From a virus (Duplodnaviria > Heunggongvirae > Uroviricota > Caudoviricetes), in IMG/VR virus record IMGVR_UViG_3300032092_002720, positions 1 to 64,000 of that record: DNA of 64,000 bases. One strand, 5' to 3'. A model generated the notes under the pieces. The model was not told the origin of the DNA, searched no databases, and saw only the letters and a program-made list of their open reading frames with translations. Below, in pieces: positions 1 through 56,405 of the stretch (positions within the stretch are counted from its first letter, which is position 1; each line of letters starts with the position of its first letter). Both the position numbers and the translations under genes were made by a program.

Positions 1-1
1 T

Positions 2-805
2 TCGTTCAACCTTGGCGACACAGCTCTCTCACCTATTCTATTCATCGATCAGCTGCAAGGAACTACGTCACTGAATGGCACTACGTTTGCTCCTGTTGCA
101 CCCAATCAAGGATCTTCGGCACCAACTACTCCACCTCCGCCGCCTGCAGAACCGACATATCCAACTACATCGATTACGACCAATCAAACTATCAAGCTTG
201 GTCAGACGAATGCCATCACGAGCAACTCGATTTACATTCAAAACATCGGTGATAATAATACAGTCAACATCGAGCAGTTCTCGAGGTTTAATGCTATCAG
301 AGGTGTGAATGGTTCTCAAGCCATGCTGATTAATGGTAGCAATAACTCTATCACTATTAATCAAGGCACTGCAACTACGATTCTTGGAAACAATCTCGCT
401 GAAGTGTCTGTGACAGGAAACAATAACACATTATCTCTGACTCAGCAACATAATGGCAAATACACAGAGTTGGTAATGAATGGAACAGGAAATCAACTCA
501 CTGCTCAGCAGAAAGATGCTGGCGGGAAGTCTGCTTTCTTTAACATCTTAGGAAACTCGAATGTTGTGACAACTCTACAGCAAGGAACTGGAAATCATTT
601 CCTCGATGTCAGTGCGCCATTCGGTGGGTTGAATGCAAACATCACTCAATCTGGTTCTGCACAGAAGCTGTTTAAATTGGTGATAAATAATCCTGGAATT
701 GGAGTCACTGTATCGCAAACTTCTGCGAGCGTTACTGACTCAGTCTTAATGTCAATCACTTGTGCCACTGGGCCTTGTACTGGATACAGCTACGTAAAGA
801 ATTAA
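2..805 (+). CDS. Curlin-repeat (CsgA-like) beta-solenoid protein, 5' end truncated by window edge
   Basis: Frame 2 is open from position 2 and continuous with listed ORF 305-805. Sequence shows tandem ~22-aa repeats of the form N-x-(I/L)-x-Q-x-G-x-x-N-x-(A/L), e.g. SITINQGTATTILGNNLAEVSVTGNNNTLSLTQQHNG, typical of curli subunit repeats. Preceded by a Pro/Thr-rich linker. Confidence 0.5.
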   Translation, partial: SFNLGDTALSPILFIDQLQGTTSLNGTTFAPVAPNQGSSAPTTPPPPPAEPTYPTTSITTNQTIKLGQTNAITSNSIYIQNIGDNNTVNIEQFSRFNAIRGVNGSQAMLINGSNNSITINQGTATTILGNNLAEVSVTGNNNTLSLTQQHNGKYTELVMNGTGNQLTAQQKDAGGKSAFFNILGNSNVVTTLQQGTGNHFLDVSAPFGGLNANITQSGSAQKLFKLVINNPGIGVTVSQTSASVTDSVLMSITCATGPCTGYSYVKN

Positions 806-807
806 TT

Positions 808-1371
808 ATGTTTGTACATGATAATGGAAATCTGAATGTTTTAGCCATGGAAAAGTGTGGTCACACTGCCATGTGGTGTTATTTTGATATGCCTCTCATG
901 CAAAAATATTTTGCAGATTGGTTAGAATATACATCTCCTCGAGTAGTGGTGTTAAGACACCCTATGGAACGCGTCCATTCTGCAATGCGTTTTGCCGATA
1001 AATTATTTAATAACGGCCAAAAAACCAAAGAAATAATGGAAGCTGTCAGATTTACACCCGAATTTTTTGACTACTATGATAATAATCCTTCGGAAATATC
1101 GGAGTATGTTTTTAATAGGCACTGTCGTCCATACATGCATATTCTAAAAAATAGAGATTTTAGAATTATAAAGTTCGAAGAACTACCTCAATACATTCCA
1201 ACGGTATTACCAGGTGGAATTGCAACAAATACCACTGATAGGAATATAGATCCGTTTCCTTCGAACAGATGGTTCACAAGAAAAGATATGATAAAAGAGA
1301 TTGAGATATATGAAAATCTCGTGGAAAACAGAGAAGTTATAACTATTCAAGAATGGAAAGCGCTAACATGA
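808..1371 (+). CDS. Sulfotransferase-like protein (putative)
   Basis: An internal ATG at 808 is the likelier start. KCGHTA resembles the 5'-PSB motif (PKSGTT) and RHPMERVHS the 3'-PB motif (RDPxDxxxS) of PAPS-dependent sulfotransferases. Motif-level only. Confidence 0.3.
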   Translation: MFVHDNGNLNVLAMEKCGHTAMWCYFDMPLMQKYFADWLEYTSPRVVVLRHPMERVHSAMRFADKLFNNGQKTKEIMEAVRFTPEFFDYYDNNPSEISEYVFNRHCRPYMHILKNRDFRIIKFEELPQYIPTVLPGGIATNTTDRNIDPFPSNRWFTRKDMIKEIEIYENLVENREVITIQEWKALT

Positions 1372-3416
1372 TTAAGAAAATTTTACTTTCGCCATGGTTG
1401 GCGCTTTTTACATTTGCAGTACTACTTACTTTTAAGTTACAAGATCCGTATTTGGTTGAAGCGACTCGTCTTAAATTTTATGACTATATCATGCTTGATA
1501 AAGCAAAGCAATCTGAGCAGATTGTAGTCGTTAATTTAGGGGAGAAAGCAATTGAAAAATATGGCCAGTGGCCGTTCCCGCGTGAAGTCCACGCTGAAAT
1601 TATTGGGGACATTTATGGCCGAGGGGCTGCTCTTGTTGGCAGCACTGTACTTATGCCTGAGCCTGATCGGATGGGCACTGATCGAATTCTTGCTGATACT
1701 CTAAGCAAGTATCCAGTCGTTCTTAGTCAGACTGTGTCGGCGGATTGCGGTCGACCATCCAGTCGCGATGTTCGTCGGACAGGTGTGGCTGTGGTTGGAG
1801 ACGGTCAAGCGACCGACTTTCTTCCGTCATATCCATGCGTCCTATCGAATCTAGCAATGCTTCAACAGCATGCTGCTGGTGTAGGAGTGACGTCAACTCT
1901 TCCTGAACCTGACGGTGTTGTGCGACGAGTTCCGCTTCTCGCAACCTCAGAGGGTGAATACTATCCTGCATTTGCTCTAGAAATGTTAAGAGTCGCGGCC
2001 GGAGATCCTTCGTATCAGGCAAAGATAAACATTGGTGGGGTGGAAGCATTACGAATTCCTTCTTTTGAAACTATTAAGACCGATGAATACGGTCGCGTGT
2101 TTATTAATCCGAACTATCGATTTGAGTCATACGAAATTGGCAAGGATCCTTTGCCTGTCCTGAGTGGTAAAATCGTTGTCCTTGGAGTAACTGCAGCTGG
2201 CGTAAGTAACCCTGTAGCGACTCCTTCAGGTGCGCAGTATCCCCATCAGTTGCAAGCGAGTATTCTTGAGACTCTGATAAATGGTGATTCGGTTTCGATT
2301 CCGAATTGGACACAGCTTGTAGATCTTGCTGCTCTTCTTGTTTTGGCTCTGTCATTAATCATCATCTCTCGATTAAAATACTCTATCGTCTGGATAGGTT
2401 TAATTTTAGGCGGATATCTCTATCTGCCGGTGTATTTATTTGCGAGCAAGGGAATCTTGTTAGACGTTACATTTAACGTGATCGCAATCGCAATTATTTA
2501 CATGCATATCTATACAGTGAAATTTATATCTGAATTCCTTCAGAAGCAACAAATCAAGAAACAGTTCGGCACATATCTGAGCCCAGATCTTGTTGCAAGA
2601 TTGCAAAGACAGCCAGATCTCTTGAAGTTAGGCGGAGAATCTCGCGAGCTTTCAATCATGTTCACAGACGTTCGTGGCTTTACTACAATCTCTGAACACT
2701 ACGGAGAAGATGTTCAAGGTCTCACGTCGATTATGAATCGTTACATGACGGTCATGACAAGAGCGATCCTTGAAAACAACGGTACATTAGATAAGTATAT
2801 TGGTGATGCACAGATGGCATTCTGGAATGCGCCGCTCGATAATAATAAGCATGCTTTGGATGCTGTACGAACAGCCTTCCAAATGTTAAAAGATTTGGAG
2901 ACTTTCAATGAAGAAGTTACAAAAGAAGGCATCCCAGCTTTCGGTATGGGTCTTGGTATTAACACTGCCACTGTGGTTGTTGGCAATATGGGCTCTGACC
3001 AGCGTTTTGATTATACTTGCTTGGGCGATGGGGTTAATCTGGCTGCTCGTCTCGAAGGTCAAACCAAGCCTTATGGAGTCAAACTCATCGTCGGACCACA
3101 AACGGCCGAATCGATTGGGAATGTATACCAAGTAGTTGAGCTCGACCTGATCGCCGTGAAAGGTAAGACAGAACCTGCTCAAATCTATACAGTACTCGAA
3201 TTTGCAGATCCTGCTGGAGAACTGCTGCATAAAAAGTTCTTGGACTTCTATCGTCAGGGCAAATGGGATGCAGCTATCAACATGATAAAAGATCTGAAAC
3301 GCTGTTGGGACGAAGAGCTAAATGCATACTATGATATGATGGAACAAAGAATCTACGACTTGAAAACCGATGAGCCACTCAAGTGGGACGGAATTTATAG
3401 AGCTACCAGTAAGTGA
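1353..3416 (+). CDS. CHASE2 sensor domain - transmembrane - class III adenylyl/guanylyl cyclase
   Basis: N-terminal TM segment, a ~300-aa periplasmic CHASE2-like region, then multiple TM helices (aa ~320-400). C-terminal cyclase homology domain motifs: RELSIMFTDVRGFTTISE, YIGDAQMAFWNAP, DYTCLGDGVNLAARLEG. Confidence 0.75.
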   Translation: MESANMIKKILLSPWLALFTFAVLLTFKLQDPYLVEATRLKFYDYIMLDKAKQSEQIVVVNLGEKAIEKYGQWPFPREVHAEIIGDIYGRGAALVGSTVLMPEPDRMGTDRILADTLSKYPVVLSQTVSADCGRPSSRDVRRTGVAVVGDGQATDFLPSYPCVLSNLAMLQQHAAGVGVTSTLPEPDGVVRRVPLLATSEGEYYPAFALEMLRVAAGDPSYQAKINIGGVEALRIPSFETIKTDEYGRVFINPNYRFESYEIGKDPLPVLSGKIVVLGVTAAGVSNPVATPSGAQYPHQLQASILETLINGDSVSIPNWTQLVDLAALLVLALSLIIISRLKYSIVWIGLILGGYLYLPVYLFASKGILLDVTFNVIAIAIIYMHIYTVKFISEFLQKQQIKKQFGTYLSPDLVARLQRQPDLLKLGGESRELSIMFTDVRGFTTISEHYGEDVQGLTSIMNRYMTVMTRAILENNGTLDKYIGDAQMAFWNAPLDNNKHALDAVRTAFQMLKDLETFNEEVTKEGIPAFGMGLGINTATVVVGNMGSDQRFDYTCLGDGVNLAARLEGQTKPYGVKLIVGPQTAESIGNVYQVVELDLIAVKGKTEPAQIYTVLEFADPAGELLHKKFLDFYRQGKWDAAINMIKDLKRCWDEELNAYYDMMEQRIYDLKTDEPLKWDGIYRATSK

Positions 3417-3422
3417 GGTAAT

Positions 3423-4037
3423 ATGATAGACGATAGTATGTTTGCATCTTATAGAGATGAATTTGAAAAAAATGGATTCGTAAAGATCAAGGGAGTTTTA
3501 TCTCCTGATATGATCGAGATGTATAAGGCCTTTATTGATATCTCGCATCTGAAGGCAATTAGAAAACCAGAATTCGGTCCTTATCTCGGAGGAGATATTG
3601 ATTCGATAGACCATAACATCCTCGATGATAGCATCTTGCTTTATTGTAAACACATCATCGAAAAAGTTTGGGGCATTCCAAACATGGTGCCTTCATATGC
3701 TTTCTCTCGAGAATATTATAGAGGCTCAGAACTGAAACTTCACCGCGATCGTGAAGCCTGTCAGTACTCTATCAGCATTACTATGTGTAAGATGGGAGAA
3801 GGTAGCACTCCTTTGTGGTTCAGTGAAAACGATGATAAGAGCAACGCTATACCTGTCGACCTTGATGAAGGCGATGCCATCATTTTCAACGGCGGTTCTG
3901 ACTATGGAGGTAAGTGGCACTGGAGAGATCCTCTTGAGATAGATTCTCTTTTCCAACTGTTCCTGCACTATGTCCATCCTGACACACCAACCCTCGCAGA
4001 CAACGATTTCCCGAGACCTTTTTATCGTTCTAGCTGA
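3423..4037 (+). CDS. 2OG-Fe(II) oxygenase, PhyH-like (putative)
   Basis: HxD (LHRDRE) with a downstream His (KWHWRDP) and an intervening DEGDAIIF strand. The pattern matches phytanoyl-CoA dioxygenase-like proteins. Confidence 0.45.
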   Translation: MIDDSMFASYRDEFEKNGFVKIKGVLSPDMIEMYKAFIDISHLKAIRKPEFGPYLGGDIDSIDHNILDDSILLYCKHIIEKVWGIPNMVPSYAFSREYYRGSELKLHRDREACQYSISITMCKMGEGSTPLWFSENDDKSNAIPVDLDEGDAIIFNGGSDYGGKWHWRDPLEIDSLFQLFLHYVHPDTPTLADNDFPRPFYRSS

Positions 4038-4039
4038 TT

Positions 4040-4086
4040 TTTAGGGTGTACATTTTATCAAAAGTTTGGTAAGGTGGACCTATAAT
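4040..4086 (+). promoter_or_regulatory. Phage promoter motif copy (GTGTACA-N17-TAAGGT + TATAAT)
   Basis: Conserved -35-like (C/G)ATGTACA, 17-nt spacer, -10-like TAnnnT. Second TATAAT at 4081-4086. Confidence 0.5.
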
Positions 4087-4102
4087 GATGAAGGACGAAA
4101 AC

Positions 4103-4570
4103 ATGAACATCACGATCACTGGTATGATTGGCAAGCGCAAAGAGAAAGCGCTTCTCAAGGAAGCCGCAGAGTTCTTTGCAGCTCAACTCATGGATCCTCG
4201 CATGGTTCGCAACCTCACCCTCGACATCGAAGTTTACAACAACCTTGATGTTGAAGGTGAATGCGTCGACGAAGATGGTTTTCGTAATCCTCGTTGGTTC
4301 ACCATCGGCCTCAAGAGCCAAGACATTAAAGCCATGATCAAGACTCTTGGCCATGAGATGGTGCATGTCAAGCAACATGCCAAGAACGAACTTCGTACTG
4401 GCCATGTAGTAGCTGCACGTGGCGGCCTTAAAATCTACAGCAAGTGGATGGGCGAAATCTGGAAGCCAAAGGGCAAAGAAGATCATTACTTCGATGCACC
4501 ATGGGAGATCGAAGCATACGGCCGCGAAGTTGGTCTGTATGCAAAATGGGTTCAATATAAAGGAAACTAA
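4103..4570 (+). CDS. HExxH zincin-like hypothetical protein
   Basis: HEMVHVKQH motif. Start moved from 4085 to the ATG at 4103 because 4085 lies inside the conserved promoter/5'UTR cassette (TATAATGATGAAGGA) that also precedes the ATG at 53121. Confidence 0.35.
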   Translation: MNITITGMIGKRKEKALLKEAAEFFAAQLMDPRMVRNLTLDIEVYNNLDVEGECVDEDGFRNPRWFTIGLKSQDIKAMIKTLGHEMVHVKQHAKNELRTGHVVAARGGLKIYSKWMGEIWKPKGKEDHYFDAPWEIEAYGREVGLYAKWVQYKGN

Positions 4571-4571
4571 T

Positions 4572-4784
4572 ATGAGTTTTTGGTTAATCGTATATCTGTT
4601 CACTGCTGACGGTGAATACTTTGCAAAAGATGTCTATGAGACTGGCAGTGCGGAGCAGTGTGTAGAGTTTGCTGGACAAGTGACAAAGACTATCGTCAAT
4701 ACCAGTCTGCAAGCACAGTTTCATTGCGTAAGCGACGATCACTATATGGGTCGTAAACAGGATGAAGGCATCGAGTATGACTAA
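4572..4784 (+). CDS. hypothetical protein
   Basis: ATG directly after the stop of the previous gene; preceding AGGAAA as SD. No recognisable motif. Confidence 0.3.
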   Translation: MSFWLIVYLFTADGEYFAKDVYETGSAEQCVEFAGQVTKTIVNTSLQAQFHCVSDDHYMGRKQDEGIEYD

Positions 4785-4886
4785 TCATCCTCGTCAGCGG
4801 GCTATGTGGGATGGTCTGGATGGCAGCGGTTGTTTGGGCTTTATTGTTTTAATTATAATTGTAACTTTGATTGGAGTCTTTGTATC

Positions 4887-5120
4887 ATGAAAAGCTTTTT
4901 GGAAGGTGTTTTTGACGTAGTGTTTAGCTTGCCGACATTCCTTATTGGACTCATTGTCGGATTCGGGTTATTGATTATGGCCGTTGCAAAATCGGAACAA
5001 GAAGAGAAGGAACTTCGTACTAAGCAGACAGCTTATTGCTATAGCCTTGGACAGGTTCTGGTTACCAGCGATGCTGGTCGTCACTGTGTTGCTCCTGAAA
5101 ACCTGACGGTGATTAAATGA
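4887..5120 (+). CDS. small membrane protein
   Basis: GGAG SD precedes the ATG at 4887. Hydrophobic helix LPTFLIGLIVGFGLLIMAV. Confidence 0.3.
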   Translation: MKSFLEGVFDVVFSLPTFLIGLIVGFGLLIMAVAKSEQEEKELRTKQTAYCYSLGQVLVTSDAGRHCVAPENLTVIK

Positions 5121-5530
5121 GAGAGGAACGTGTAGGTATTGTAGCCAGTTGTTTTGATCTGTTCCATGCAGGTCATATCCTTATGCTGATGGAGGCTAAG
5201 GACCACTGTGATCGTTTGGTTGTAGCTTTGCAATCGGATCCTACAATCGATCGTCCTGAAAAGAACAAGCCCGTTCAAGGTCTATCTGAACGTTATATTC
5301 AGTTGGAGGCATGTAAGTATGTCGATCAGATCGTCCCGTACGATACTGAGGCAGATCTCTACAACCTACTTGCTGGTCTTGATTGGGACGTTCGTTTCCT
5401 TGGTATGGATTACATTGATCGAACAGACTTCACTGGATACGATCTCGACATTCCTATCCACTACTGCAGTCGTAGGCATAACTATAGTTCATCTGGTTTG
5501 CGTGAACGTATTTTGAAAGCAAAGAAATGA
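5117..5530 (+). CDS. Cytidylyltransferase-fold nucleotidyltransferase (RfaE domain II / TagD-like)
   Basis: CFDLFHAGH (HxGH) motif, RLVVALQSD, and a C-terminal SSSGLRERI (ISTT-like) motif. Collinear with the HldE C-terminal heptose-1-P adenylyltransferase and with glycerol-3-P cytidylyltransferase. Confidence 0.6.
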   Translation: MREERVGIVASCFDLFHAGHILMLMEAKDHCDRLVVALQSDPTIDRPEKNKPVQGLSERYIQLEACKYVDQIVPYDTEADLYNLLAGLDWDVRFLGMDYIDRTDFTGYDLDIPIHYCSRRHNYSSSGLRERILKAKK

Positions 5531-5970
5531 GTAAGTGGGTAGCACGATTCCTTGATCTCGCCGATCATGTTGCGACATGGTCAAAGGATCCTCGGACACA
5601 AGTAGGCTGTGTCATTGTAGATAAGCACAATCGTATCGTCTCTCTCGGTTTCAATGGCTTTCCTCGTGGTGTAAAAGATCTTGCAGAGAGATACAACGAT
5701 AGGCCTACGAAGCATCTGTTCGTAGCTCATGCCGAACGGAACGCACTCGACAATGCTCCGCTGTCTGTCGAAGGCTGCACGCTTTATAGTCCTCTTCTAC
5801 CTTGCAGCGAATGCGCCAAGAGCATCATTCAGAAGGGAATTACGAAGGTGGTATCGTACGAGCCAGTTGAAGACGTCGAACATTTTCACTGGCATGTTAC
5901 AAAACAAATGTTTTTAGAAGCTGGAGTTCAACTCTATCTTATAAATAAACCTGTCACGCCTAATGGGTGA
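5527..5970 (+). CDS. cd: dCMP deaminase
   Basis: HAERNA zinc-binding motif and PCSECAKSI (PCxxCA) motif of the CMP/dCMP deaminase family. ATGA overlap with the upstream gene. Confidence 0.75.
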   Translation: MSKWVARFLDLADHVATWSKDPRTQVGCVIVDKHNRIVSLGFNGFPRGVKDLAERYNDRPTKHLFVAHAERNALDNAPLSVEGCTLYSPLLPCSECAKSIIQKGITKVVSYEPVEDVEHFHWHVTKQMFLEAGVQLYLINKPVTPNG

Positions 5971-6004
5971 CACAACTCAAACTCGCTTATATAGGAGCAA
6001 AATT

Positions 6005-6529
6005 ATGTTTAAAGATAATCCGTTCTGGAGAACAAATGACTTCGATCGTTTCTACGTTGGATTCGATGAAGTTGCAAAAAAGCTAAACGCCGCTGCGAGC
6101 CAAGCTCAAGCCGTTGCTGCAAAATACCCTCCATACAATCTGAAGAAGATTGACGAAAACAAGTATACGATCGAACTCGCTGTTGCTGGCTTTGCTAAGC
6201 AAGATCTTGAGATCGAGATCGTAGACGACAAGCTAATCATCAAGGGCAATACCACATCTGGTGAACCTGCAGAGCAGGATTCGAAGGGAGAGTGGACATG
6301 GCCTCAGATGCTGCATCACGGACTTGCAATGCGTCCGTTCACACGAACATTTACTATTGCCGATAACGTAGAAATTCGCGGTGCATCACTTCTGAATGGC
6401 ATTCTGAAGATTGCTTTGGAAGCTATTATTCCAGAGCACAAGAAGCCGAAGAAGGTAAAGATTGAAGACGAAGATACAGAGTATCCGTCGCAAGCTGCCG
6501 AATTCTTGGCAGAAGGTAAGACTAAGTAA
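6005..6529 (+). CDS. Hsp20 / alpha-crystallin family small heat-shock protein
   Basis: AGGAG SD before the ATG at 6005. Alpha-crystallin-like core (YTIELAVAGFAKQDLEIEIVDDKLIIKG ... TFTIADNVEIRGASLLNGILKI). Confidence 0.55.
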   Translation: MFKDNPFWRTNDFDRFYVGFDEVAKKLNAAASQAQAVAAKYPPYNLKKIDENKYTIELAVAGFAKQDLEIEIVDDKLIIKGNTTSGEPAEQDSKGEWTWPQMLHHGLAMRPFTRTFTIADNVEIRGASLLNGILKIALEAIIPEHKKPKKVKIEDEDTEYPSQAAEFLAEGKTK

Positions 6530-6536
6530 AAAAGAA

Positions 6537-6560
6537 GGGGACCTTTCGGTCCCCTTCAAT
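6537..6560. terminator. Bidirectional intrinsic terminator hairpin
   Basis: GGGGACC-TTTC-GGTCCCC between the convergent genes ending at 6529 (+) and 6561 (-), with A/T runs on both sides. Confidence 0.7.
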
Positions 6561-7739
6561 TTATCCCCAATTGGAGTATTGTTTTGTTTTCTTTAAACGA
6601 TCGTCAAGACCGTGTGTACCGCCATTCACTCGCTTTGAGATTTGAGTGATCACCGCATCGGTAACACCTTTGTCTGCAATTGCAAGCAATCCATTCTTAC
6701 GGAAGAACCATAATGCAGACTCAAAAGCCAACTCACCAACCACAAGATCAGGATTCGTCAAGACGTCAGGACGTTTTACGTCAGCGGCAAAGGCTGTATA
6801 GTTGTCTTTCCCGGTCAGTTGGATCGGGCCTCGACCACGCCACTTCCAGCCATCTCCAGAGGCTTCTGAACCGTTCCCCATCCGATTAGCATACACTTTG
6901 TTTGCAATCTTTTCTGGCTTACGAGCATAACCTGCGGTCGAAGCGATCGTTGGAAAATACTTCTTAAAGGTTCCGTTGAGTCCCTTATCCGAATAGTTCA
7001 GGTTCTCAGAGAATACCTTAAACCCGCCTGACTCGTGTGCACACTGACCGAAGAAGTGTGCTGCCTGATTATTTGTCAGCTTGAAGAAGTCTCTTGCCGC
7101 CTTATATGTGCCAGGTCCCCACTTACCATCGGCAGTAATGCCGCATTTAGTTTGGAGAGCAGCTAATGGACCAAGACCTGCAGCTATTGGTTTGGCTTGC
7201 GTTACAGAGTCAGTGATTTGTGAGTTGACTGTCTTGATGGTAGGTGCACCAGCAGCCTTTGTCGTCGAAGGATCAAAGTCGGCAACAGTAGTGTATACCG
7301 TACCACCAGCTTTTGACTTCGTAGCGATCATACGTACTTTGCGATTGCCTCCACCCTTCTTAATCGAAGCATGCACCCAACCTGAATTCTTATCGCCCTT
7401 TGTGTAGAACTCAAGAATCACTTGGTCAAATTCAAGGTTATCACCGATCCAATCGGCAACAGTTTTGTTATCGACACCCTTTACTTCAAAGTCAATTGCC
7501 TGACCGTTGACGTGCTGAGATGTCTTCGAGCCACCGACTGCCTTATTGACAAGCGGAGCACGATACGAAGAGTTGACTGTGACTGGTCCAAACTTAGCAC
7601 GAACTGGTTCGAGAATCTTTTCGCAGCAGTAGCGCATATTCTCGATGTGTTCTGGAGTTGGAGTGTTACTCAGTCCAAGTCTTTTTGCAGTAGGAGAAAC
7701 AATCATTTCTGCCAAAGAAAAATGTTCAGTTAGTTTCAT
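6561..7739 (-). CDS. Modular endolysin: M15 peptidase + peptidoglycan-binding + GH19 glycosidase
   Basis: N-terminus has the Peptidase_M15_3 motifs SSYRAP...SQHVNGQAIDF...WVH. Middle region CGITADGKWGPGTYKAARDF is PG_binding-like. C-terminus carries GH19 motifs GQCAHESGGF and RGPIQLTGKDNY. It is the only - strand gene in the first 59 kb. Confidence 0.8.
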   Translation of the reverse strand: MKLTEHFSLAEMIVSPTAKRLGLSNTPTPEHIENMRYCCEKILEPVRAKFGPVTVNSSYRAPLVNKAVGGSKTSQHVNGQAIDFEVKGVDNKTVADWIGDNLEFDQVILEFYTKGDKNSGWVHASIKKGGGNRKVRMIATKSKAGGTVYTTVADFDPSTTKAAGAPTIKTVNSQITDSVTQAKPIAAGLGPLAALQTKCGITADGKWGPGTYKAARDFFKLTNNQAAHFFGQCAHESGGFKVFSENLNYSDKGLNGTFKKYFPTIASTAGYARKPEKIANKVYANRMGNGSEASGDGWKWRGRGPIQLTGKDNYTAFAADVKRPDVLTNPDLVVGELAFESALWFFRKNGLLAIADKGVTDAVITQISKRVNGGTHGLDDRLKKTKQYSNWG

Positions 7740-7815
7740 TTTTATCGCCTTTTACTATGTACTTTATTCGGGTTTTAGGGTATAACTAACAATGCGGCCA
7801 GACACTGGAGATCTC

Positions 7816-10323
7816 ATGAATTTTTACACCAATGTTACTCGACATCGAAATCAAATTTTAGTACGTGGAATATCTGACGGCAAGCCCGTCAAATTTTCTG
7901 TGAAATACAAACCTTATTTATTCGTTCAAGCAAATGCACAAACCGAACATAAGAACCTGAAGGGTGAATATGTCGGCAAGATGCAGTTCGACTCCATGTC
8001 TGAAACACGAGAGTTTCTGCAAAGTTACGAAAACGTGGCAGGCATGAACATCTATGGCCTCTCTGATTGGCCTTACATGTATATTTATGACAATTATAAG
8101 GGTGAGATCAGGTATGATCCCGCCCTCATTTCAGTTTGTTCGATCGATATCGAGACCAGCATCGAAGGTGGTTTCCCTGACATCGAGGAAGCAGACAAAG
8201 AAATCACAGGTATTACCATCGGCCGCAATGGTAGGAAGACCACATTTGGATGCGGTGAATATAAGGAACATCAAGACAATGTACAATATTACAAATGCGC
8301 AGACGAATCTGCACTCCTACTCGCTTTCCTTGAAGTCTGGAACGGGTCACTCTACTCGCCTGACGTTGTCACAGGCTGGAACATCGAGTTCTTCGACATT
8401 CCGTATCTTGTCAACAGGATTCGAAAGATTCTTGGATCTGATCACGCTGAACGTCTCTCTCCCTGGAAAATGCTCCGTGAATACAAAGTTAACAGCCGTG
8501 GACGAGAGTGCATTTGCTATGCCCCTGTCGGCATCGCCGTCCTTGATTACATCCAGCTTTATCGGAAGTTTACGTACACAGAGCAGGAATCTTACCGACT
8601 TGACTACATCGCTCAAGTTGAGCTAGGTGAAGGTAAGATTGACTTTCGCGACGAAGGTTATACCGACCTTGACGACCTTCGTCTGAGGAACTTCCAACGT
8701 TACATCGAGTATAACATTCGTGACGTTGAAATCGTTGAGAGGCTCGAAGATAAGCTGAAGCTCATCGAGTTGGTCTATGCTTTGGCTTATGACGCCAAGG
8801 TTAACTATGAAGATACTATGACAACCGTGAAACAGTGGGACGTGATCACTCACAACTACCTACTCGATCGAAACATCGTAGTGCCTCTCAACGATAAGAA
8901 TAAACCCGACCGAGCCTTCGTAGGCGGATATGTCAAAGATCCAAAGGTCGGTATGAGTAAATGGGTTGTGTCGTTCGATTTGAACTCCCTTTATCCTCAC
9001 CTTATCATGCAGTACAACATCTCCCCCGAGACGCTTGTCACTCGCTTAAAAGATAAGGTGTCAATCGACGACCTACTTGTTGGTGGCGCTAGTCAGTTCG
9101 GTGGCTATCTTGATAAAACGAACTGCACTATCGCCGCCAACCTTTGTATCTATACAAAAGAAAAACGCGGCTTCTTGCCATCGATTATGGATCGTATGTA
9201 TGACGATCGTACGAAATACAAGAAGCAGATGATCGAGTGTAAGAAGGAATATGAGAAGACGAAAGATCCTCGTCTTGTCAAGGAAATCGCACGACTCGAT
9301 AACATGCAGATGGCCAAGAAGATTCAGTTGAACTCGGCTTATGGTGCTCTCGGTAACAAGTGGTTCCGTTGGTTTGACGTGAACAATGCCGAAGCCATCA
9401 CCACCTCTGGTCAGCTCAGCATTCGTTGGATCGAGAAGAAGCTCAACGACTATCTCAACAAATTGTTGAAGACAGAAAACTTTGACTATGTGTTGGCTTC
9501 TGATACCGACTCGGTGTATGTGACGCTCGAATACCTCGTCAAGAATGTATTCGGTGATGATGTGCCTGAAACCAAGAAGGTGATTCAGTACATCGACAAG
9601 ATCTGTAAGGAACGAATCGAACCATTCATCGATCGTTCTTATCAAGAGCTTGCCGAATATATGCATGCATATGCTCAGAAGATGCAAATGAAGCGAGAGA
9701 ACATCGCAGACAAAGGCATCTGGAAAGCCAAGAAGATGTACATCCTCAATGTGTGGAACTCTGAAGGCGTTGAGTATGAGAAGCCGAAGTTGAAGATGAC
9801 AGGCATCGAAGCAGTTCGATCCTCGACTCCGACCGCATGTCGTGATGCCATTAAAAAGTCTCTCGAGATTATTATGGCTGGATCTGAATCGGATCTTCAG
9901 AAGTATGTGGCCAACTTCAAGTCAGAGTTTTCCTCTCTTGGATTTGACGACGTGGCCTTCACCCGTGGTGTCAAGGACATCGAGAAATATTGGGTAGGCG
10001 GTAGGTTCCAAAGCCAGACACCTATCCATGTTCGTGGTTCTGTGGTCTACAACGAAATGTTGAAGAAGAAGAAACTCACAAATAAATATCAATCTATTAC
10101 CAGCGGTGAGAAGATTAAGTTCGCATACTTGAAAAACCCAAATCCGACACAAGACTATGTTATCTCGTGTCCGAATGGTCTACCAAAAGAATTGAAGATG
10201 GAAGCTTACATCGACTATGCTGTGCAGTTCGAGAAAGGCTATCTCAGTCCTATCGAATCTATCACTAACACAATGGGCTGGCAAGCAGAAAAACGCGCAA
10301 CACTGGAGGATTGGTTCTCATGA
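7816..10323 (+). CDS. 43: Family B DNA polymerase (T4 gp43-like)
   Basis: Exo I motif CSIDIETS, Pol motifs SLYPHLIM and LASDTDSVYV (DTDS), KxxxNSxYG. T4-like N-terminus, so the start is probably the ATG at 7816 (MNFYTNV) rather than 7792. Confidence 0.9.
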   Translation: MNFYTNVTRHRNQILVRGISDGKPVKFSVKYKPYLFVQANAQTEHKNLKGEYVGKMQFDSMSETREFLQSYENVAGMNIYGLSDWPYMYIYDNYKGEIRYDPALISVCSIDIETSIEGGFPDIEEADKEITGITIGRNGRKTTFGCGEYKEHQDNVQYYKCADESALLLAFLEVWNGSLYSPDVVTGWNIEFFDIPYLVNRIRKILGSDHAERLSPWKMLREYKVNSRGRECICYAPVGIAVLDYIQLYRKFTYTEQESYRLDYIAQVELGEGKIDFRDEGYTDLDDLRLRNFQRYIEYNIRDVEIVERLEDKLKLIELVYALAYDAKVNYEDTMTTVKQWDVITHNYLLDRNIVVPLNDKNKPDRAFVGGYVKDPKVGMSKWVVSFDLNSLYPHLIMQYNISPETLVTRLKDKVSIDDLLVGGASQFGGYLDKTNCTIAANLCIYTKEKRGFLPSIMDRMYDDRTKYKKQMIECKKEYEKTKDPRLVKEIARLDNMQMAKKIQLNSAYGALGNKWFRWFDVNNAEAITTSGQLSIRWIEKKLNDYLNKLLKTENFDYVLASDTDSVYVTLEYLVKNVFGDDVPETKKVIQYIDKICKERIEPFIDRSYQELAEYMHAYAQKMQMKRENIADKGIWKAKKMYILNVWNSEGVEYEKPKLKMTGIEAVRSSTPTACRDAIKKSLEIIMAGSESDLQKYVANFKSEFSSLGFDDVAFTRGVKDIEKYWVGGRFQSQTPIHVRGSVVYNEMLKKKKLTNKYQSITSGEKIKFAYLKNPNPTQDYVISCPNGLPKELKMEAYIDYAVQFEKGYLSPIESITNTMGWQAEKRATLEDWFS

Positions 10324-14338: not shown

Positions 14339-14949
14339 CTCGATTTGTAAACAGGTTCGTAATCTCTGACCATCATCTTGGTCATACGAATTCATGGGAA
14401 AAGTTCAAGCTCGAGGATGGCAGTCCTTTGCGTCCGTTCACTTCGACCGAAGAGATGAACGAGACCATGATTGAACGTCACAATGCCAAAGTGAAAGAGC
14501 AGGACACTGTCTACTTTCTTGGCGACGTGGTAATCAATAAGAAGTATCTCGAACTGGTAAAGCGCATGAACGGTCGTAAGATCCTCATCCGTGGTAACCA
14601 TGATATCTTCAAGGACGAAGACTATCGTGCAGTTGGCTTTGAGCAGATGCACGGTGTTCGTGTGTTTGTGGATAAGTTCATTCTGAGCCATATCCCTCTA
14701 CATCCTGACTGCGTATCAGAACGGTTCCGTGTCAACGTACATGGGCATCTGCACGCCAATCAAATAGGGTGGGTTGATCCAATTAACGGTCCTGGATATG
14801 ATCCTCGATATCTCTGCGTATGCGTAGAGCAAACCGACTTCACACCTCTTCACTTTGACGAGGTAGAAGAAAGAATCCAACAGCGTTGGGAATATGCAGG
14901 ATACGAAGGTCCTGTAAAAGCATGGGTAAATGGAAGTGGGCCAGGTTAA
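14335..14949 (+). CDS. Calcineurin-like metallophosphoesterase
   Basis: DHH (FVISDHHLGH), GDVV, GNHD and GHLH motifs in the order expected for Ser/Thr-phosphatase-like phosphoesterases. GTG start. Confidence 0.55.
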   Translation: MTRFVNRFVISDHHLGHTNSWEKFKLEDGSPLRPFTSTEEMNETMIERHNAKVKEQDTVYFLGDVVINKKYLELVKRMNGRKILIRGNHDIFKDEDYRAVGFEQMHGVRVFVDKFILSHIPLHPDCVSERFRVNVHGHLHANQIGWVDPINGPGYDPRYLCVCVEQTDFTPLHFDEVEERIQQRWEYAGYEGPVKAWVNGSGPG

Positions 14950-15496: not shown

Positions 15497-16294
15497 ATGA
15501 ATCGTATTGCTAAGATCGCCGTTCTCGCTGGTTTGATGGCCACGACTGCTGCATGTACTCGAATTGAAACTGGTGAAGTTGGTGTTCGTCGGACATTTAA
15601 CAAGACTATTGAAACCACTGAACTGATGCCTGGTTCTGTTAATCAGACCATCTTTGGTGATGTATTGACGTTCCCAACGAAGGACGTTCAGGTTGACGTA
15701 GCTGACTTGACTCCACTCGCTTCGGATAACTCGACAGTTGCTGACTTCGATATGGCTGTCATCTACTCGATTAATCCTGGTTCGGTTGCAGAACTCTACA
15801 TCGAGAAGAACCGTGGCTTCCACGCTGACACCGAAGAAGGTGACACTCTCCTGATGTACAACTACATTCGTCAGCTTGGTCGCAATGCTGCCTATAAGGT
15901 TGCACGTAAGTATGAGTCATTGAAGATGGCTGATAATCGTGCTGAGATGGAACAACTGATTCGTCAGGAAGTTGTAGCACAGCTCGCTTCTGAGAAGCTT
16001 GACGGTGCAATTTCAATCTCACAGGTTCTTGTTCGTCAGGTAAAGCCTGCTGCAAATATCGTAGCCTCGGCTAATGCTCTTGTTCAGGCTCAGAATGCTG
16101 AAAAGCAAAAGCTGGTAGAGGTTCGTACCGCAAAGTTGGAAGCTGAACGTATTGCTGCTCTGAACGCCAACGCAGGCGCAACGAAGTACATGGAAGCAAC
16201 TGCTCTCGTAACGATCGCCGAAGCTGTCAAGGAAGGTAAGGTTTCTACCATTATCGTTCCTTACGACTTCAAGGGTATCGTCAACGTAAAGTAA
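15497..16294 (+). CDS. SPFH/band-7 (HflK/C-like) domain lipoprotein
   Basis: Signal peptide ending in the lipobox-like TAAC. GEVGVRR and a coiled ALVQAQNAEKQKLVEVRTAKLEAERIAA stretch typical of SPFH domains. Confidence 0.55.
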   Translation: MNRIAKIAVLAGLMATTAACTRIETGEVGVRRTFNKTIETTELMPGSVNQTIFGDVLTFPTKDVQVDVADLTPLASDNSTVADFDMAVIYSINPGSVAELYIEKNRGFHADTEEGDTLLMYNYIRQLGRNAAYKVARKYESLKMADNRAEMEQLIRQEVVAQLASEKLDGAISISQVLVRQVKPAANIVASANALVQAQNAEKQKLVEVRTAKLEAERIAALNANAGATKYMEATALVTIAEAVKEGKVSTIIVPYDFKGIVNVK

Positions 16295-17574: not shown

Positions 17575-18656
17575 CTTATTTTTTACGTACTGGTAATACT
17601 TACCGTGTAACTGACGAAGCTGCACTGGATCTCCATGAGTTGCTGCCTGCTGGTAACTACATCATCAAGCAAGATCAGTTTGGTAATTTGTTCCTCGAGG
17701 AAACTGATAAGTTCAAGCCGCTGAGTAAGTACTACGGCGATTGTTTGAAGCATGCTGATCGTATTCATCGTACTTTTGCCGATCGTCCTTCCAGCACTGG
17801 TGTCATGCTAACTGGCGAGAAGGGTTCTGGTAAGACTCTGCTTGCAAAGCAGCTTTCCATTCTCGGCTACGAGCTTGGTATTCCTACCATCATCATTAAT
17901 CATGACTGGACTGGCGATGCTTTCAATAAGTTCCTTGCAGACATCGATCAGCCATGCATTATCCTGTTCGACGAGTTCGAGAAGGTCTACAACCATCAGA
18001 AGCAGGAAGCTATCCTGACTCTGCTCGACGGTGTGTTTCCTTCGAAGAAGCTGTTCGTTCTGACTTGTAATGACAAGTGGCGTATCGACCAACATATGCG
18101 TAATCGGCCCGGTCGTATCTTCTACATGATTGACTTCAAGGGTCTGACGGCCGAGTTCATAGTTGAATATTGCAACGATAACCTCGAGGATAAGTCTCAT
18201 ATCGATCAGATCACGAAGATCGCTACTCTGTTTACTGAGTTCAACTTTGACATGCTGAAGGCAATGGTCGAAGACATGAACCGCTACGGTGAGACTCCAC
18301 AGGAAGTCATGCGACTCCTGAATGCCAAGCCCGAGTATGATAGTCGTGATGAGGCCAAGTTCAAGGTCGAGCTGTTTACCGAAAATGGCCAACAAGTCGA
18401 TGATAAGTTCCTGTACACTAAAATGTGGCATCGCAATCCATTGGCTAGCAACTCCATCTTTATTGAACTTAATGACGATGAAGATATCGATGGGCCTGAT
18501 GAATTCGATGGCTGTGAAGGCTACTCGTTCGACCAGTCTGAACTGATTAATATCAATGGCGAAACTGGTACGTTCGAGTATCGATCCAAGGATGGTTCTC
18601 GTCTTAAGCTGACTCGACAAAAGCAGCAAACCTTTAACTACTTTGGAGCTCTCTAA
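17571..18656 (+). CDS. AAA+ ATPase (clamp-loader-like)
   Basis: Walker A GEKGSGKT, Walker B ILFDEFE, sensor-like VLTCND and an arginine-finger-like RNRPGR. ATGA overlap. Confidence 0.6.
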   Translation: MTYFLRTGNTYRVTDEAALDLHELLPAGNYIIKQDQFGNLFLEETDKFKPLSKYYGDCLKHADRIHRTFADRPSSTGVMLTGEKGSGKTLLAKQLSILGYELGIPTIIINHDWTGDAFNKFLADIDQPCIILFDEFEKVYNHQKQEAILTLLDGVFPSKKLFVLTCNDKWRIDQHMRNRPGRIFYMIDFKGLTAEFIVEYCNDNLEDKSHIDQITKIATLFTEFNFDMLKAMVEDMNRYGETPQEVMRLLNAKPEYDSRDEAKFKVELFTENGQQVDDKFLYTKMWHRNPLASNSIFIELNDDEDIDGPDEFDGCEGYSFDQSELININGETGTFEYRSKDGSRLKLTRQKQQTFNYFGAL

Positions 18657-19765
18657 TGAAGGAAGCATGCATCGTCGGTTTTGGAATGATCGATGCGTTA
18701 GGCGATAATCCCATCGATTGTTGGGAGAATATGCTTAACGATCGAGACTTCCATAAACCTATTGAACCCCATGTACATGAAGGTCACACTCTTAAGGTAA
18801 AAACTGCCTTCTATCCTGATGTCGAGATCGACCAAGAATTGCAACCTCGTACTGTAGCATATGGTATGCATGCAGTCGAGCAAGCTTTGCATATGGCTGG
18901 TCTACCACACTCTTCAAGCGTAGGCGTCATCTTCTCGACTTTGACAGGTGGAAATTCCTTTAAAGCAAAGCTAGACGCCGTAGGCAGAAAGCAAAAGCCT
19001 AAGCAGATCCTTCGCTCTACGAAGGATTATCTCTGCAGCCAAATCTCAATCAAGTATGGATATACTGGTATCAATACCATGGTATATTCTGCTTGTGCTA
19101 CAGGTTTGGTAAGCATCGAATATGCTATGCGAATGCTCGATGAGTATGACTATGTGATCGTAGGCGGTTCTGATGCTGGCGTAAATCATATGGATCTCTA
19201 CTTCTTCTCGATTATCAAAGCAATCGGTTCGAAGTCGATGCCATTCGATAAGAATCGCGACGGCTTTATTATGGGCGAAGGCGCAGGTTGCATCATCCTT
19301 CAGTCGAGAGAAAAGGCCGAAGCGATGGGTTCGAAGGTCTATGCTCGTATCACTGGAGTTTCGAATGCTTCAGATGCACACGATCCGACTGCACCTTCTG
19401 GAGCCGGAGCTCGTCTTTGCTTGGAGAAGCTGGATCTCGAAGGAGTCGACTCAGTCAACTCACATGGAACCAGCACTCCACTCGGAGATGTGGTAGAGTA
19501 TGACGTGGTTCGCGAGTTTACTGATGCACCGATCTATTCCAATAAAGGAAAAATTGGACATACTTTCGCCGCGGCAGGTGTACTTGAAACGATTTATAGT
19601 GTACTGTCTATTCAGAACGGCGTGATTCCTCATACCGCTGGTTGTCAAGACACTGATATGGATGTGGTGACAGAGAACATCGAGACTGACGTCAAGAAGG
19701 TTCTTGTTAATTCATTTGGATTTGGTGGCAAGTGTTGTTCTATTATTGTTGAAAAGGAGTATTGA
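18656..19765 (+). CDS. Beta-ketoacyl-(ACP) synthase (KAS I/II-like, short form)
   Basis: Active-site Cys in YSACATG; His in NSHGTSTPLGD; His/Lys in NKGKIGHTFAAAG; C-terminal NSFGFGG. At 369 aa it is shorter than FabF. Confidence 0.8.
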   Translation: MKEACIVGFGMIDALGDNPIDCWENMLNDRDFHKPIEPHVHEGHTLKVKTAFYPDVEIDQELQPRTVAYGMHAVEQALHMAGLPHSSSVGVIFSTLTGGNSFKAKLDAVGRKQKPKQILRSTKDYLCSQISIKYGYTGINTMVYSACATGLVSIEYAMRMLDEYDYVIVGGSDAGVNHMDLYFFSIIKAIGSKSMPFDKNRDGFIMGEGAGCIILQSREKAEAMGSKVYARITGVSNASDAHDPTAPSGAGARLCLEKLDLEGVDSVNSHGTSTPLGDVVEYDVVREFTDAPIYSNKGKIGHTFAAAGVLETIYSVLSIQNGVIPHTAGCQDTDMDVVTENIETDVKKVLVNSFGFGGKCCSIIVEKEY

Positions 19766-28014: not shown

Positions 28015-28304
28015 TCGGATTTAAGGAATTCATCACTGAGCGTGGCGAAGATTCGAAAGGCCACTTCATTGCCACCGAGAAGGGTGCAGGTATGACAGCG
28101 AAGGGTGTAAAAGCCTATCGTGCCAAGAATCCTGGATCCAAGCTTCAGACTGCTGTGACTGGAAAAGTAAAACCCGGATCCAAAGATGCAGGTAGACGTA
28201 AGTCTTTCTGTGCTCGTATGAGCGGCGTCAAAGGTCCGATGAAAGATGAAAAAGGTAGACCGACTCGCAAGGCGATGTCGCTTCGTAGATGGAAGTGCAA
28301 TTGA
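28011..28304 (+). CDS. small basic protein
   Basis: ATGA overlap with the upstream gene; K/R-rich. Confidence 0.35.
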   Translation: MIGFKEFITERGEDSKGHFIATEKGAGMTAKGVKAYRAKNPGSKLQTAVTGKVKPGSKDAGRRKSFCARMSGVKGPMKDEKGRPTRKAMSLRRWKCN

Positions 28305-28738
28305 TGGAAGAGATTACAAACCCGCTGAAGGTAGCCTTCGCTGACACTTATGCTTTCTATGTGAAGGCACAGAACTATCACTGGAATGTCGAAGGTCCAT
28401 TCTTTGCGATGTACCACGAGTTCTTTGGTAAGATCTACGAAGAAGTAGGTGGAGCTATCGACACGTTTGCCGAAGAGATTCGTGCACAGAATGCATATGC
28501 TCCTGCAGCATTCGGTCGTTTTAAAGAATTGACAACTATTCAAGACGAAGTTCTTATCATTAAGCCTGAACAGATGGTTGCCAACTTGTTTTCAGACAAT
28601 GCCAAAGTACTGGCTTCTGTACAAGCAGCAAGAGACGTAGCAGATAAGTACAATGAAAACGGTCTCGTTAACTTCCTCGAAGAGAGACTCGATCAGCACA
28701 ACAAACATGCATGGATGCTCAAAGCATCGATGAAATAA
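28289..28738 (+). CDS. Dps / ferritin-like DNA-protection protein
   Basis: YAFYVKAQNYHWNVEGPFFAMYHEFFGKIYEEV and EEIRAQNAY match the Dps ferroxidase-site helices. An alternative start at 28304 overlaps the upstream stop (TGATG). Confidence 0.7.
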   Translation: MEVQLMEEITNPLKVAFADTYAFYVKAQNYHWNVEGPFFAMYHEFFGKIYEEVGGAIDTFAEEIRAQNAYAPAAFGRFKELTTIQDEVLIIKPEQMVANLFSDNAKVLASVQAARDVADKYNENGLVNFLEERLDQHNKHAWMLKASMK

Positions 28739-56357: not shown

Positions 56358-56405
56358 TAGAATATCAGTTGTTGACAATCAACGATAAAAGTGCCGAGGA
56401 CGCGG

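Follow-up and report, generated by a model that had tools for sequence, protein, structure and literature searches.

The window, the whole 64,000-nucleotide stretch of viral DNA analyzed here, encodes a predicted CHASE2-sensor class IIIb adenylate cyclase, which is a new lineage's member of a published curli gene cluster and not a new principle. We consider it likely, with a probability of roughly 0.6 and judging from sequence, that the protein is an inner-membrane homodimeric class IIIb adenylate cyclase set by its CHASE2 domain, acting as the cytoplasmic output of a phage envelope module. The addition made by this analysis is that FecR proteins and CHASE2 sensors repeatedly occur together in cells as a sensor cassette. 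The phage version of that cassette probably reports the state of the envelope or of secretion as cAMP.

Gene, membrane topology and catalytic domain

The cyclase is encoded by an uninterrupted 687-codon open reading frame on the + strand (1353..3416), the strand of all features given below. Its true start is probably the ATG at 1368 (M6), because this codon overlaps the stop codon of the upstream ORF as ATGA, cyclase homologues start at MIKK in agreement with M6, and gene callers chose 1368 on two contigs encoding an identical protein. The gene would then span 1368..3416, so that the frame originally predicted to give a 687-aa protein is intact while its product is likely 682 aa long. Residue numbers are nevertheless counted from 1353, the longest-ORF start. 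The cyclase has no NCBIfam match, and a nucleotide search of the first 8 kb of the window against GenBank phages gave no match and hence no close cultured relative. When positions 1-8000 were scanned, promoter-like sites occurred at background level (20 seen, 15.4 expected), there was no convincing terminator between the cyclase and the next genes, and the single strong hairpin (6534-6557) lay between convergent genes.

The architecture originally predicted for the protein, a periplasmic CHASE2 sensor with a multi-transmembrane (TM) region and a complete cyclase domain, holds by Pfam, hydropathy and AlphaFold2. One TM helix is followed by periplasmic CHASE2, three TM helices and a class III cyclase domain, and both the CHASE2 and the Guanylate_cyc profiles match well over threshold. 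CHASE2 (PF05226) matches aa 23-334 with 129 bits (E 3e-37, cutoff 26.3), spanning profile positions 6-254 of 257. By hydropathy, the N-terminal TM helix spans about aa 9-27 and is separated by some 290 periplasmic residues from three TM helices at about aa 321-392; the AlphaFold2 monomer model (pLDDT 85.9) has helices at 15-30, 320-338, 344-366 and 373-405. Both point to TM1, an extracytoplasmic domain, three TM helices and a cytoplasmic output, the same topology as described for a CHASE2 kinase (PMC5192318).

TM1 (aa 9-27; 1377..1433), with a hydropathy peak of 1.84 and K8 and K9 on its N-side, leaves the N-terminus in the cytoplasm and corresponds to model helix 15-30. The periplasmic CHASE2 sensor domain follows (aa 28-320; 1434..2312), modeled with pLDDT mostly between 86 and 96. 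Among 187 distinct full-length viral homologues (at least 600 aa), 82 of its 293 columns are at least 95% conserved, and D44, G71, R77, D110, G178, D187, R191 and G283 are invariant in a 28-sequence alignment that mixes phage-like representatives with longer, bacterial-like ones. Three closely spaced TM helices, seen by hydropathy and in the model (aa 321-392; 2313..2528), bring the chain back to the cytoplasm.

The conservation of the sensor bears on the idea of a generic host takeover, in which constitutive cAMP would reprogram host carbon metabolism, adjacency to curli genes would reflect co-transfer and CHASE2 would be mainly an anchor. Other cyclase-domain PHROGs (phrog_29613, 34154 and 25255) matched the catalytic region, an Acinetobacter phage cyaA matched the catalytic region only (aa 425-676), and neither a receptor nor a regulator is encoded nearby, all of which would suit this idea. 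It is set against the 82 conserved periplasmic columns, which include the CHASE2 signature residues that are invariant in the mixed alignment, and we judge it quite improbable.

The juxtamembrane helical linker (aa 393-430; 2529..2642) is the most conserved segment of the protein, with 26 of 38 columns at least 95% conserved and a mean identity of 93% among the 187 viral homologues. In the alignment it corresponds to the linker of 6fht, a phytochrome-cyclase fusion, and it probably transmits the signal to the catalytic domain; we take it to be a putative 'cyclase transducer element'. At the other end of the catalytic domain, a C-terminal helical tail (aa 613-687; 3189..3416 with the stop codon) ends in ...WDGIYRATSK. 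Its helices in the AlphaFold2 model are 620-635, 638-648 and 657-673, and in the mixed phage-like and bacterial-like alignment its invariant positions are R666 and W678, with G680 and K687 close to invariant.

The class III cyclase homology domain (aa 431-612; 2643..3188) is matched by Guanylate_cyc (PF00211) over aa 431-608 with 63.7 bits (E 2.2e-17, cutoff 21.9). The sequence motifs cited in the original prediction were located, FTDVRGFT at aa 437, DKYIGDA at aa 480 and YTCLGDGVNLAARLE at aa 554, and GDAQMAFWNAP begins at aa 484. All six catalytic residues are present: the metal-binding D439 (codon 2667-2669) and D485 (2805-2807), the adenine-type, class IIIb K481 (2793-2795) and T555 (3015-3017), and the transition-state N562 (3036-3038) and R566 (3048-3050) within the VNLAARLE motif. 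The metal Asp residues of CyaC, CyaB and Cya2 have their aligned counterparts in D439 and D485, so the aspartate pair is in place, and both D439 and D485 are invariant in 187/187 viral homologues; N562 is kept in 186/187 and R566 in 187/187.

The base-specifying positions determine the substrate specificity of class III cyclases. K481 and T555 fall on the K and T of CyaC (DKF...DFTAIG) and CyaB, while E and G occupy these positions in the guanylate cyclase Cya2; K481 is kept in 187/187 and T555 in 185/187 viral homologues. Inspection of the specificity residues thus returned an adenine-type class IIIb pair, from which cAMP, not cGMP, is expected as the probable product. A different product, either cGMP or a Pycsar-like pyrimidine cNMP that could trigger, mimic or disturb host immune signalling, seems to us highly improbable. 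From its sequence, the enzyme is predicted to be, probably, a homodimeric class IIIb adenylate cyclase.

Gly533, invariant among viral homologues, sits where many class III cyclases have a phosphate-binding Arg; Cya2 likewise has Gly. As read from the alignments, the window cyclase has the full ATP-to-cAMP catalytic set, kept under purifying selection (dN/dS 0.13 at dS 0.40). The structures of Pseudomonas aeruginosa CyaB (3r5g) and Spirulina platensis CyaC (1wc1) comprise catalytic domains only, and the regulatory domains of these two enzymes differ from the CHASE2 of the phage cyclase. As a candidate Pycsar cyclase (PycC) the protein was rejected, a full-length PycC match together with an adjacent effector gene not being found.

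The viral curli-FecR-cyclase module

The cyclase is the last gene of a same-strand module that runs CsgF, CsgG, curlin-repeat protein A, FecR, an optional curlin-repeat protein B and the cyclase in every IMG/VR viral locus with enough flank. Melnitz, HTVC008M and their near relatives have the same gene order. Of this module, the window itself includes no more than the last curlin-repeat gene (2-805) and the cyclase, and contig L166, 99.9% identical to the window over 12 kb, carries the whole module with intergenic gaps of -56 to +9 bp. All module proteins are orthologous across three lineages (26-54% identity), and export signal peptides are found on five partners of the cyclase, CsgF, CsgG, both curlin-repeat proteins and FecR, the last being a separate 378-aa protein (gene at 6845-7981 on L166). 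In one curlin-like protein, about 230 aa at the N-terminus lie outside the repeats. The cyclase had initially been singled out as unusual for a replication region. It does lie among T4-like replication genes, with DNA polymerase, UvsX and gp41 downstream, but as the terminal gene of a conserved module it is not an isolated oddity.

A viral T8SS cluster including FecR and adenylate cyclase has already been described for pelagiphages (mSystems 2022; PMC9599517), and the gene is already annotated in HTVC008M and Melnitz; this window adds a new abundant lineage. The HTVC008M (AGE60353.1) and Melnitz (QZI94833.1) proteins are full-length orthologues of the window cyclase at 38-41% identity and 85-96% coverage (Melnitz 41%, HTVC008M 38-39%), and the cyclase has its own PHROG, phrog_35576, matched end to end with 786 bits. 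The three phages share a T4-like myophage background and the position of the cyclase after CsgF, CsgG, a curlin repeat, FecR and a curlin repeat. The window lineage is nevertheless separate and uncultured, with a DNA polymerase only about 50% identical to cyanomyophage polymerases and a G+C content of about 44%. Its module adjoins the DNA polymerase region, whereas that of HTVC008M and Melnitz is placed before tail genes, and it has an extra ORF, p187, ahead of the cyclase compared with the pelagiphage cluster. The HTVC008M cyclase lacks the C-terminal tail, its match ending at aa 612.

The module is of cellular origin and the cyclase is absent from some viral curli clusters, so that the T8SS part can work without it (PMC9599517). 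These two observations would agree with a decaying or neutral passenger acquired with the curli genes from an alphaproteobacterium. Such a passenger has a negligible probability: an intact ORF of about 680 aa with invariant catalytic residues is kept in the 187 distinct full-length viral homologues, the dN/dS ratio is low, at least 585 IMG/VR contigs encode a relative, and ocean metatranscriptomes show expression of the viral cluster (PMC9599517). The conservation data effectively refute it.

In the reading put forward in PMC9599517, the cyclase would instead regulate the viral T8SS, with cAMP acting through a CRP-type factor to switch on curli expression or secretion. This would be analogous to the cAMP-CRP control of csgD in enterobacteria, and the same study proposes that adenylate cyclase and FecR take part in the working of the T8SS and that the multigene unit is selected as a whole; the strict co-location with T8SS genes supports a link. 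We nonetheless regard such regulation as unlikely. As the last gene of a tightly packed unit, the cyclase would be made alongside the genes that it would induce, and the window has no CsgD or CRP homologue. A large conserved periplasmic sensor also fits an envelope input better than a simple on-switch, and bacterial cyclases of the same type follow T1SS and FecR genes, suggesting generic sensing. The two readings, regulator of the T8SS and output of a sensor, do not exclude each other, since feedback is possible.

FecR-CHASE2 cassettes in bacteria and a proposed mechanism

Of 80 bacterial CHASE2 cyclases, 27 have a homologue of the phage FecR no more than 10 kb away, in most cases directly beside the cyclase, and FecR is the commonest Pfam family in the directly upstream ORF (15 of 61 bacterial loci). 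A FecR homologue is missing near the other 53 of the 80 cyclases, so CHASE2 does not strictly require FecR in order to function. CsgG, CsgF or curlin-like genes were found beside the cyclase at none of the 80 loci, and within this sample the link between T8SS and cyclase appears phage-specific. In viruses, FecR linkage is present in all loci with enough flank, across 53-94% protein identity, and mirrors the cellular association of FecR with CHASE2, which further argues against a generic takeover by constitutive cAMP.

The nearest cellular cyclases are alphaproteobacterial, at 30-36% identity (L086 from Tardiphaga, uncultured L098, L124 and L117). At L086 the order is a giant FecR/cadherin/RTX protein, an ABC transporter, HlyD and the cyclase; L098 has the same order, but its giant protein matched RTX and Big_9 only, with no FecR match, and other alphaproteobacterial loci run OEP, C39-ABC, HlyD and cyclase. 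These clusters resemble the phage module in combining a secretion machine for a repeat-rich surface protein with a FecR domain and a cyclase as the last gene. They differ in that the machine is a T1SS (ABC transporter, HlyD, TolC-like OEP) where the phage has a T8SS, and in that FecR is fused to the giant cadherin/RTX protein, whereas the phage FecR is separate. We did not find the arrangement of T1SS, FecR and CHASE2 cyclase described in the literature consulted.

A FecR-domain periplasmic protein is also encoded beside a CHASE2 sensor in two described cellular cassettes, a Campylobacterota cluster in which a CHASE2 adenylate cyclase is joined by FecR and TPR proteins and a phosphodiesterase (PMC9239204) and a Burkholderiales operon of LysM-FecR and a CHASE2 histidine kinase (PMC5192318). 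Unlike the phage module, no T8SS or curlin-repeat genes were found in these cassettes, and the phage window has neither the phosphodiesterase nor the TPR partner of the Campylobacterota cluster. Two Campylobacterota loci, L120 from Sulfurimonas and L134, were among our bacterial cyclases, with a FecR homologue only in L120.

Compared by description, the Sinorhizobium meliloti cyclases CyaD1, CyaD2 and CyaK likewise combine CHASE2 with a class III cyclase, and an alphaproteobacterial origin is common to them and the phage enzyme. In S. meliloti, an external protein signal acts on the CHASE2 cyclases via the outer-membrane NsrA and is converted to cAMP, with output via the CRP-like Clr (PMC13001267), and the same regulon includes SMc02177, a FecR-domain protein (PMC5498481). 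That system is cellular and symbiotic, with Clr as receptor, whereas the phage cyclase is paired with a T8SS channel and curlin repeats.

For an enzyme working as the output of an envelope module, the following sequence of events can be proposed. The infecting phage would install a CsgG/CsgF outer-membrane channel and export the curlin-like proteins. Periplasmic FecR, in a coupling drawn from the gene neighbourhood, would then convey the state of the surface or secretion apparatus, or a captured ligand, to CHASE2, and the signal would pass along the three-helix bundle and then the conserved linker before reaching the catalytic dimer. The cAMP level of the infected cell would rise or fall and act on a receptor outside the window, presumably a host CRP-family or other cNMP-binding protein. 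Candidate outputs would be metabolic reprogramming of the host, control over when late functions or lysis occur, and a feedback that acts on secretion. A Pfam scan of the window ORFs of at least 60 aa that passed the gene filter, some of them as concatenated chunks, found no cNMP_binding, CRP or GAF domain, and a literature search on SAR11 cAMP receptors and phage-encoded adenylate cyclase gave nothing useful.

More tentatively, the whole module could be an outside-in sense organ, in which contact of curlin-like fibres would pass through FecR and CHASE2 to cAMP for lysis timing or metabolism, and CHASE2 cyclases would generally report the secretion of surface fibres. Contact partners could be particles, neighbouring cells or superinfecting virions. 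We consider this doubtful; if true, it would amount to a signalling counterpart of T4 lysis inhibition, and CHASE2 cyclases would report T1SS in Alphaproteobacteria and T8SS in phages.

The module is carried by phages of some of the most abundant ocean bacteria and is expressed at sea (PMC9599517), and what the phage "curli operon" does is acknowledged to be puzzling (PMC7029224, PMC9004378). With FecR and CHASE2 taken as one cassette, the cluster would resemble an iron-regulated fibre machine less than it resembles an envelope-to-cAMP signalling pathway, which the virus would bring into hosts reported to lack curli genes. The same view suggests a route to finding ligands for CHASE2 domains, whose signals are largely unknown.

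Neighbouring open reading frames

Among the neighbours originally listed, the curlin-repeat protein is real, although the window's left edge truncates it, and it alone is functionally linked to the cyclase. The C-terminal 267 aa of this CsgA/B-like curlin-repeat protein B are encoded at 2..805, in frame 2, which is open from base 2 to the stop codon at 803-805; on L166 the full-length gene is annotated at 7978-9438 and encodes 486 aa. The window fragment has a weak Curlin_rpt match and is 96% identical to the C-terminus of a 486-aa protein of L003, an orthologue that has a signal peptide (dN/dS 0.04). Curlin-repeat B is the gene directly before the cyclase in the ancestral module.

Between the two lies p187, a cytoplasmic ORF of 187 aa (808..1371) that is physically inside the module. 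The proposal that it is sulfotransferase-like found no support in Pfam, NCBIfam, PHROGs, PADLOC or PDB, and as a sulfotransferase it was rejected with no match even to E = 10. No signal peptide was found in the L003 orthologue. Among the viral loci compared, p187 occupies this site only in L003, L004, L011 and L036. It is a mobile insert, since it is missing from most modules, has homologues about 9 kb away in other viral genomes, and is more diverged from its L003 counterpart (62% identity by blastp, dS 1.31) than the genes flanking it (93-96% identity, dS 0.4-0.5). It is probably not a functional part of the module.

The ORF on the other side of the cyclase (3423-4037) had been called a 2OG oxygenase. 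This identity is weakly supported, PhyH scoring 22.3 bits at a cutoff of 22 and phrog_2954 matching with E 2.5e-25, and the lack of a signal peptide together with a dS of 2.45 suggests that the gene has an independent history.

The cyclase and its catalytic residues

The ORF at 1353..3416 (+, 687 codons) had been read as a CHASE2 sensor joined to a class III cyclase, and this reading of the protein itself was right, with Pfam, motifs and topology in agreement. CHASE2 (129 bits, aa 23-334) and Guanylate_cyc (63.7 bits, aa 431-608) score far above their curated Pfam cutoffs, and the three cyclase motifs quoted in the original prediction are located at aa 437, 484 and 558 (counted from 1353). Hydropathy gives one N-terminal transmembrane segment, ~290 extracytoplasmic residues and three transmembrane segments close together at aa 321-392. 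An AlphaFold2 model built from 37 homologues (mean pLDDT 85.9) places its helices at the same transmembrane positions. The true start is likely the ATG at 1368, which overlaps the stop of the upstream ORF in an ATGA arrangement, is equivalent to the start of the homologues and was picked by two gene callers on contigs with an identical cyclase protein.

Key residues were assigned by aligning the protein with phmmer to class III cyclases of solved structure. D439 and D485 align with the metal-binding aspartates, N562 and R566 with the transition-state pair, and K481 and T555 with the Lys and Thr that recognise the base in CyaC and CyaB, positions taken by Glu and Gly in the guanylate cyclase Cya2. 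All six catalytic positions are kept in 185-187 of 187 distinct viral homologues. Across these homologues, 82 columns of the periplasmic part are at least 95% conserved, and the linker is the most conserved segment of the protein. Compared with one near relative, the gene has a dN/dS of 0.13 and a dS of 0.40. As judged from its sequence, we conclude that the phage protein is a predicted active class IIIb adenylate cyclase. Production of another nucleotide, or carriage of the gene as a neutral passenger, is contradicted jointly by the specificity residues, structural ranking and conservation data.

The curli-FecR module in phages

We then compared the surroundings of the gene across phages. In Methylophilales phage Melnitz and Pelagibacter phage HTVC008M, whose cyclases are 41% and 38% identical to that of the window and already carry an adenylate/guanylate cyclase annotation, the order is CsgF, CsgG, curlin-repeat, FecR-domain and second curlin-repeat protein, with the cyclase last; phrog_35576 matches the cyclase end to end. 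The first ORF of the window, open to base 2, is the C-terminus of the second curlin-repeat protein. A contig of the same phage population (L166), which is 99.9% identical to the window across 12 kb and reaches 8.6 kb further left, carries the complete module, its neighbouring genes spaced -56 to +9 bp apart. Among 80 IMG/VR loci, CsgF, CsgG, curlin-repeat A and FecR precede the cyclase in every locus with enough upstream DNA, and curlin-repeat B is present in about half of these. The cyclase, first taken for an isolated gene, in fact ends a conserved curli-FecR module in viral loci. Module proteins are orthologous in three lineages (26-54% identity), and signal peptides are found on CsgF, CsgG (lipoprotein-like), both curlin-repeat proteins and FecR; none was found on the orthologues of the 187-aa ORF and of the 204-aa oxygenase-like ORF in a near-relative viral locus (L003).

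These two ORFs flank the cyclase, at 808-1371 (+) and 3423-4037. The original prediction grouped them with the curlin-repeat protein as unusual neighbours, of which only the latter belongs to the module. Their dS values (1.31 for the 187-aa ORF, 2.45 for the oxygenase) lie far above those of the flanking module genes (0.40-0.50), and both therefore resemble exchanged cassettes rather than module parts. The 187-aa ORF, which separates the curlin-repeat gene from the cyclase, matched no detectable family. Its counterpart in a relative shares only 62% identity with it, against 93-96% for the genes on either side. The ORF is an occasional insert ahead of the cyclase, found elsewhere, ~9 kb off, in other genomes, and looks like a small mobile cassette.

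To the left of the window, L166 encodes two paralogous ~90-aa proteins (4217-4767 of that contig), each with an N-terminal transmembrane helix and a conserved DRVR.M..D.IR helix. The pair lies directly upstream of CsgF in 52/59 viral loci and probably corresponds to the genes termed 'histidine kinase' in PMC9599517; the conserved helix has no His in orf87 and one in orf95, and both proteins are far shorter than a kinase. The first of them, which is the first module gene, has a T4-type late-promoter motif, TATAAATA, 13 bp upstream, a position that weakly hints at late module expression.

The phage "curli operon" has been discussed as a puzzle, with the cyclase unmentioned (PMC7029224, PMC9004378). 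A viral T8SS cluster that explicitly includes FecR and an adenylate cyclase, present in podo- and myophages, was described as being of alphaproteobacterial origin, passed between viral families and expressed in metatranscriptomes (PMC9599517). The gene and its module membership are therefore not new, and the window contributes a lineage, not a principle, to a module whose biology is ecologically relevant. That study is absent from the literature containing both "CHASE2" and "FecR", so the sensor domain seemingly went unnamed there. In its interpretation, FecR is a regulator related to iron, and the cyclase may regulate the T8SS.

FecR and CHASE2 in bacterial loci

We further examined 80 loci with the nearest cellular CHASE2 cyclases, mostly from Alphaproteobacteria (28-37% identity). 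Within 10 kb of the cyclase, the phage-module profiles found a FecR homologue in 27/80, usually adjacent, and CsgG, CsgF or curlin-like proteins in none. FecR also tops the Pfam families of the same-strand ORF directly upstream (15/61), followed by FHA (8) and HlyD (7). In published work, FecR adjoins a CHASE2 sensor in Campylobacterota, where a TPR protein and a cAMP phosphodiesterase accompany the pair (PMC9239204), and a CHASE2 histidine kinase in Burkholderiales (PMC5192318). FecR and CHASE2 thus form a sensing cassette that recurs in cells and tends to be found alongside machinery for the export of repeat-rich surface proteins.

Several alphaproteobacterial loci run giant protein, T1SS ABC transporter, HlyD, cyclase; others run TolC-like OEP, C39-ABC transporter, HlyD, cyclase. 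In L086, L098, L085, L125, L124 and L117, the CHASE2 adenylate cyclase closes a type I secretion cluster, with an ABC transporter and HlyD upstream and sometimes a TolC-like OEP, an arrangement for which we found no description in the literature consulted. A giant FecR-domain protein precedes the transporter genes in L086 and L125. In several alphaproteobacterial loci the giant combines an N-terminal FecR with cadherin-like, Big_9 and RTX repeats (cadherin/RTX in the analogous giants of L088, L094 and L099), whereas that of L098 had matches to RTX and Big_9 only. The phage module follows the same logic, with a T8SS where the bacteria have a T1SS.

An intact enzyme, a constrained sensor, a most conserved linker and exported partners form the basis of the proposed mechanism. 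Through FecR, CHASE2 would be coupled either to the state of the CsgG/CsgF-curlin apparatus or to a ligand captured by FecR; the signal would cross the membrane via the three-helix bundle and linker, and cAMP output in the infected cell would change. The published suggestion that the cyclase controls T8SS expression is possible, and compatible with feedback; a constitutive host-takeover enzyme is likewise possible. A Pfam scan of those window ORFs of at least 60 aa that passed the gene filter found no cNMP-binding, CRP or GAF domains. The CHASE2 cyclases of S. meliloti respond to a protein signal from outside the cell, received via an outer-membrane protein, and the cAMP acts on a CRP-like regulator (PMC13001267). 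About 4 kb ahead of the module, L166 has a gene for an outer-membrane beta-barrel protein of 158 aa (Pfam OMP_b-brl; 254-730 of that contig), and AhpC-like and radical SAM/SPASM genes come after it; given the S. meliloti requirement, a link of the barrel protein to the cyclase is conceivable by analogy.

Lineage and other features of the window

The first 8 kb of the window have no nucleotide match among GenBank phages. Besides the genes already described, the window carries T4-like replication and nucleotide-metabolism genes (DNA polymerase, UvsX, gp41-like helicase, gp59, gp32, gp33-like coactivator, RNase H, RNR, ThyX and PhoH), and the polymerase is only ~50% identical to those of cyanomyophages, which together indicate an uncultured T4-like lineage. 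This lineage is abundant: >120 protein clusters fall at 80-94% identity, and the IMG/VR contigs number at least 585.

An endolysin-like fusion of Peptidase_M15_3 and a chitinase-like glycoside hydrolase 19 (6561-7739, -) is separated from a convergent HSP20 gene by a strong hairpin (6534-6557). A small calcineurin-like metallophosphoesterase (14455-14949, +) gave a weak match of ~21 bits, under the Pfam cutoff; CpdA-type cAMP phosphodiesterases belong to this superfamily. Amid the replication genes lie an SPFH/Band 7 membrane protein (15497-16294, +) and a ferritin/Dps-like protein (28289-28738, +). The window also encodes a FabF-like beta-ketoacyl synthase (18656-19765, +; ketoacyl-synt 93.9 bits, plus the C-terminal domain) and a sugar-modification run of group 1 glycosyltransferase, GHMP kinase and SIS-domain isomerase (44693-47157, +), similar to LPS-related islands described in pelagimyophages. 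Finally, ARAGORN identified a permuted (two-piece), alpha-type tmRNA gene at 56325-56739 (+) with the tag peptide ANDNDSFADIRLAA (Rfam RF04321, 100 bits; RF01849, 87 bits); a permuted tmRNA, an unusual feature, has likewise been reported in phage Melnitz (PMC9004378).
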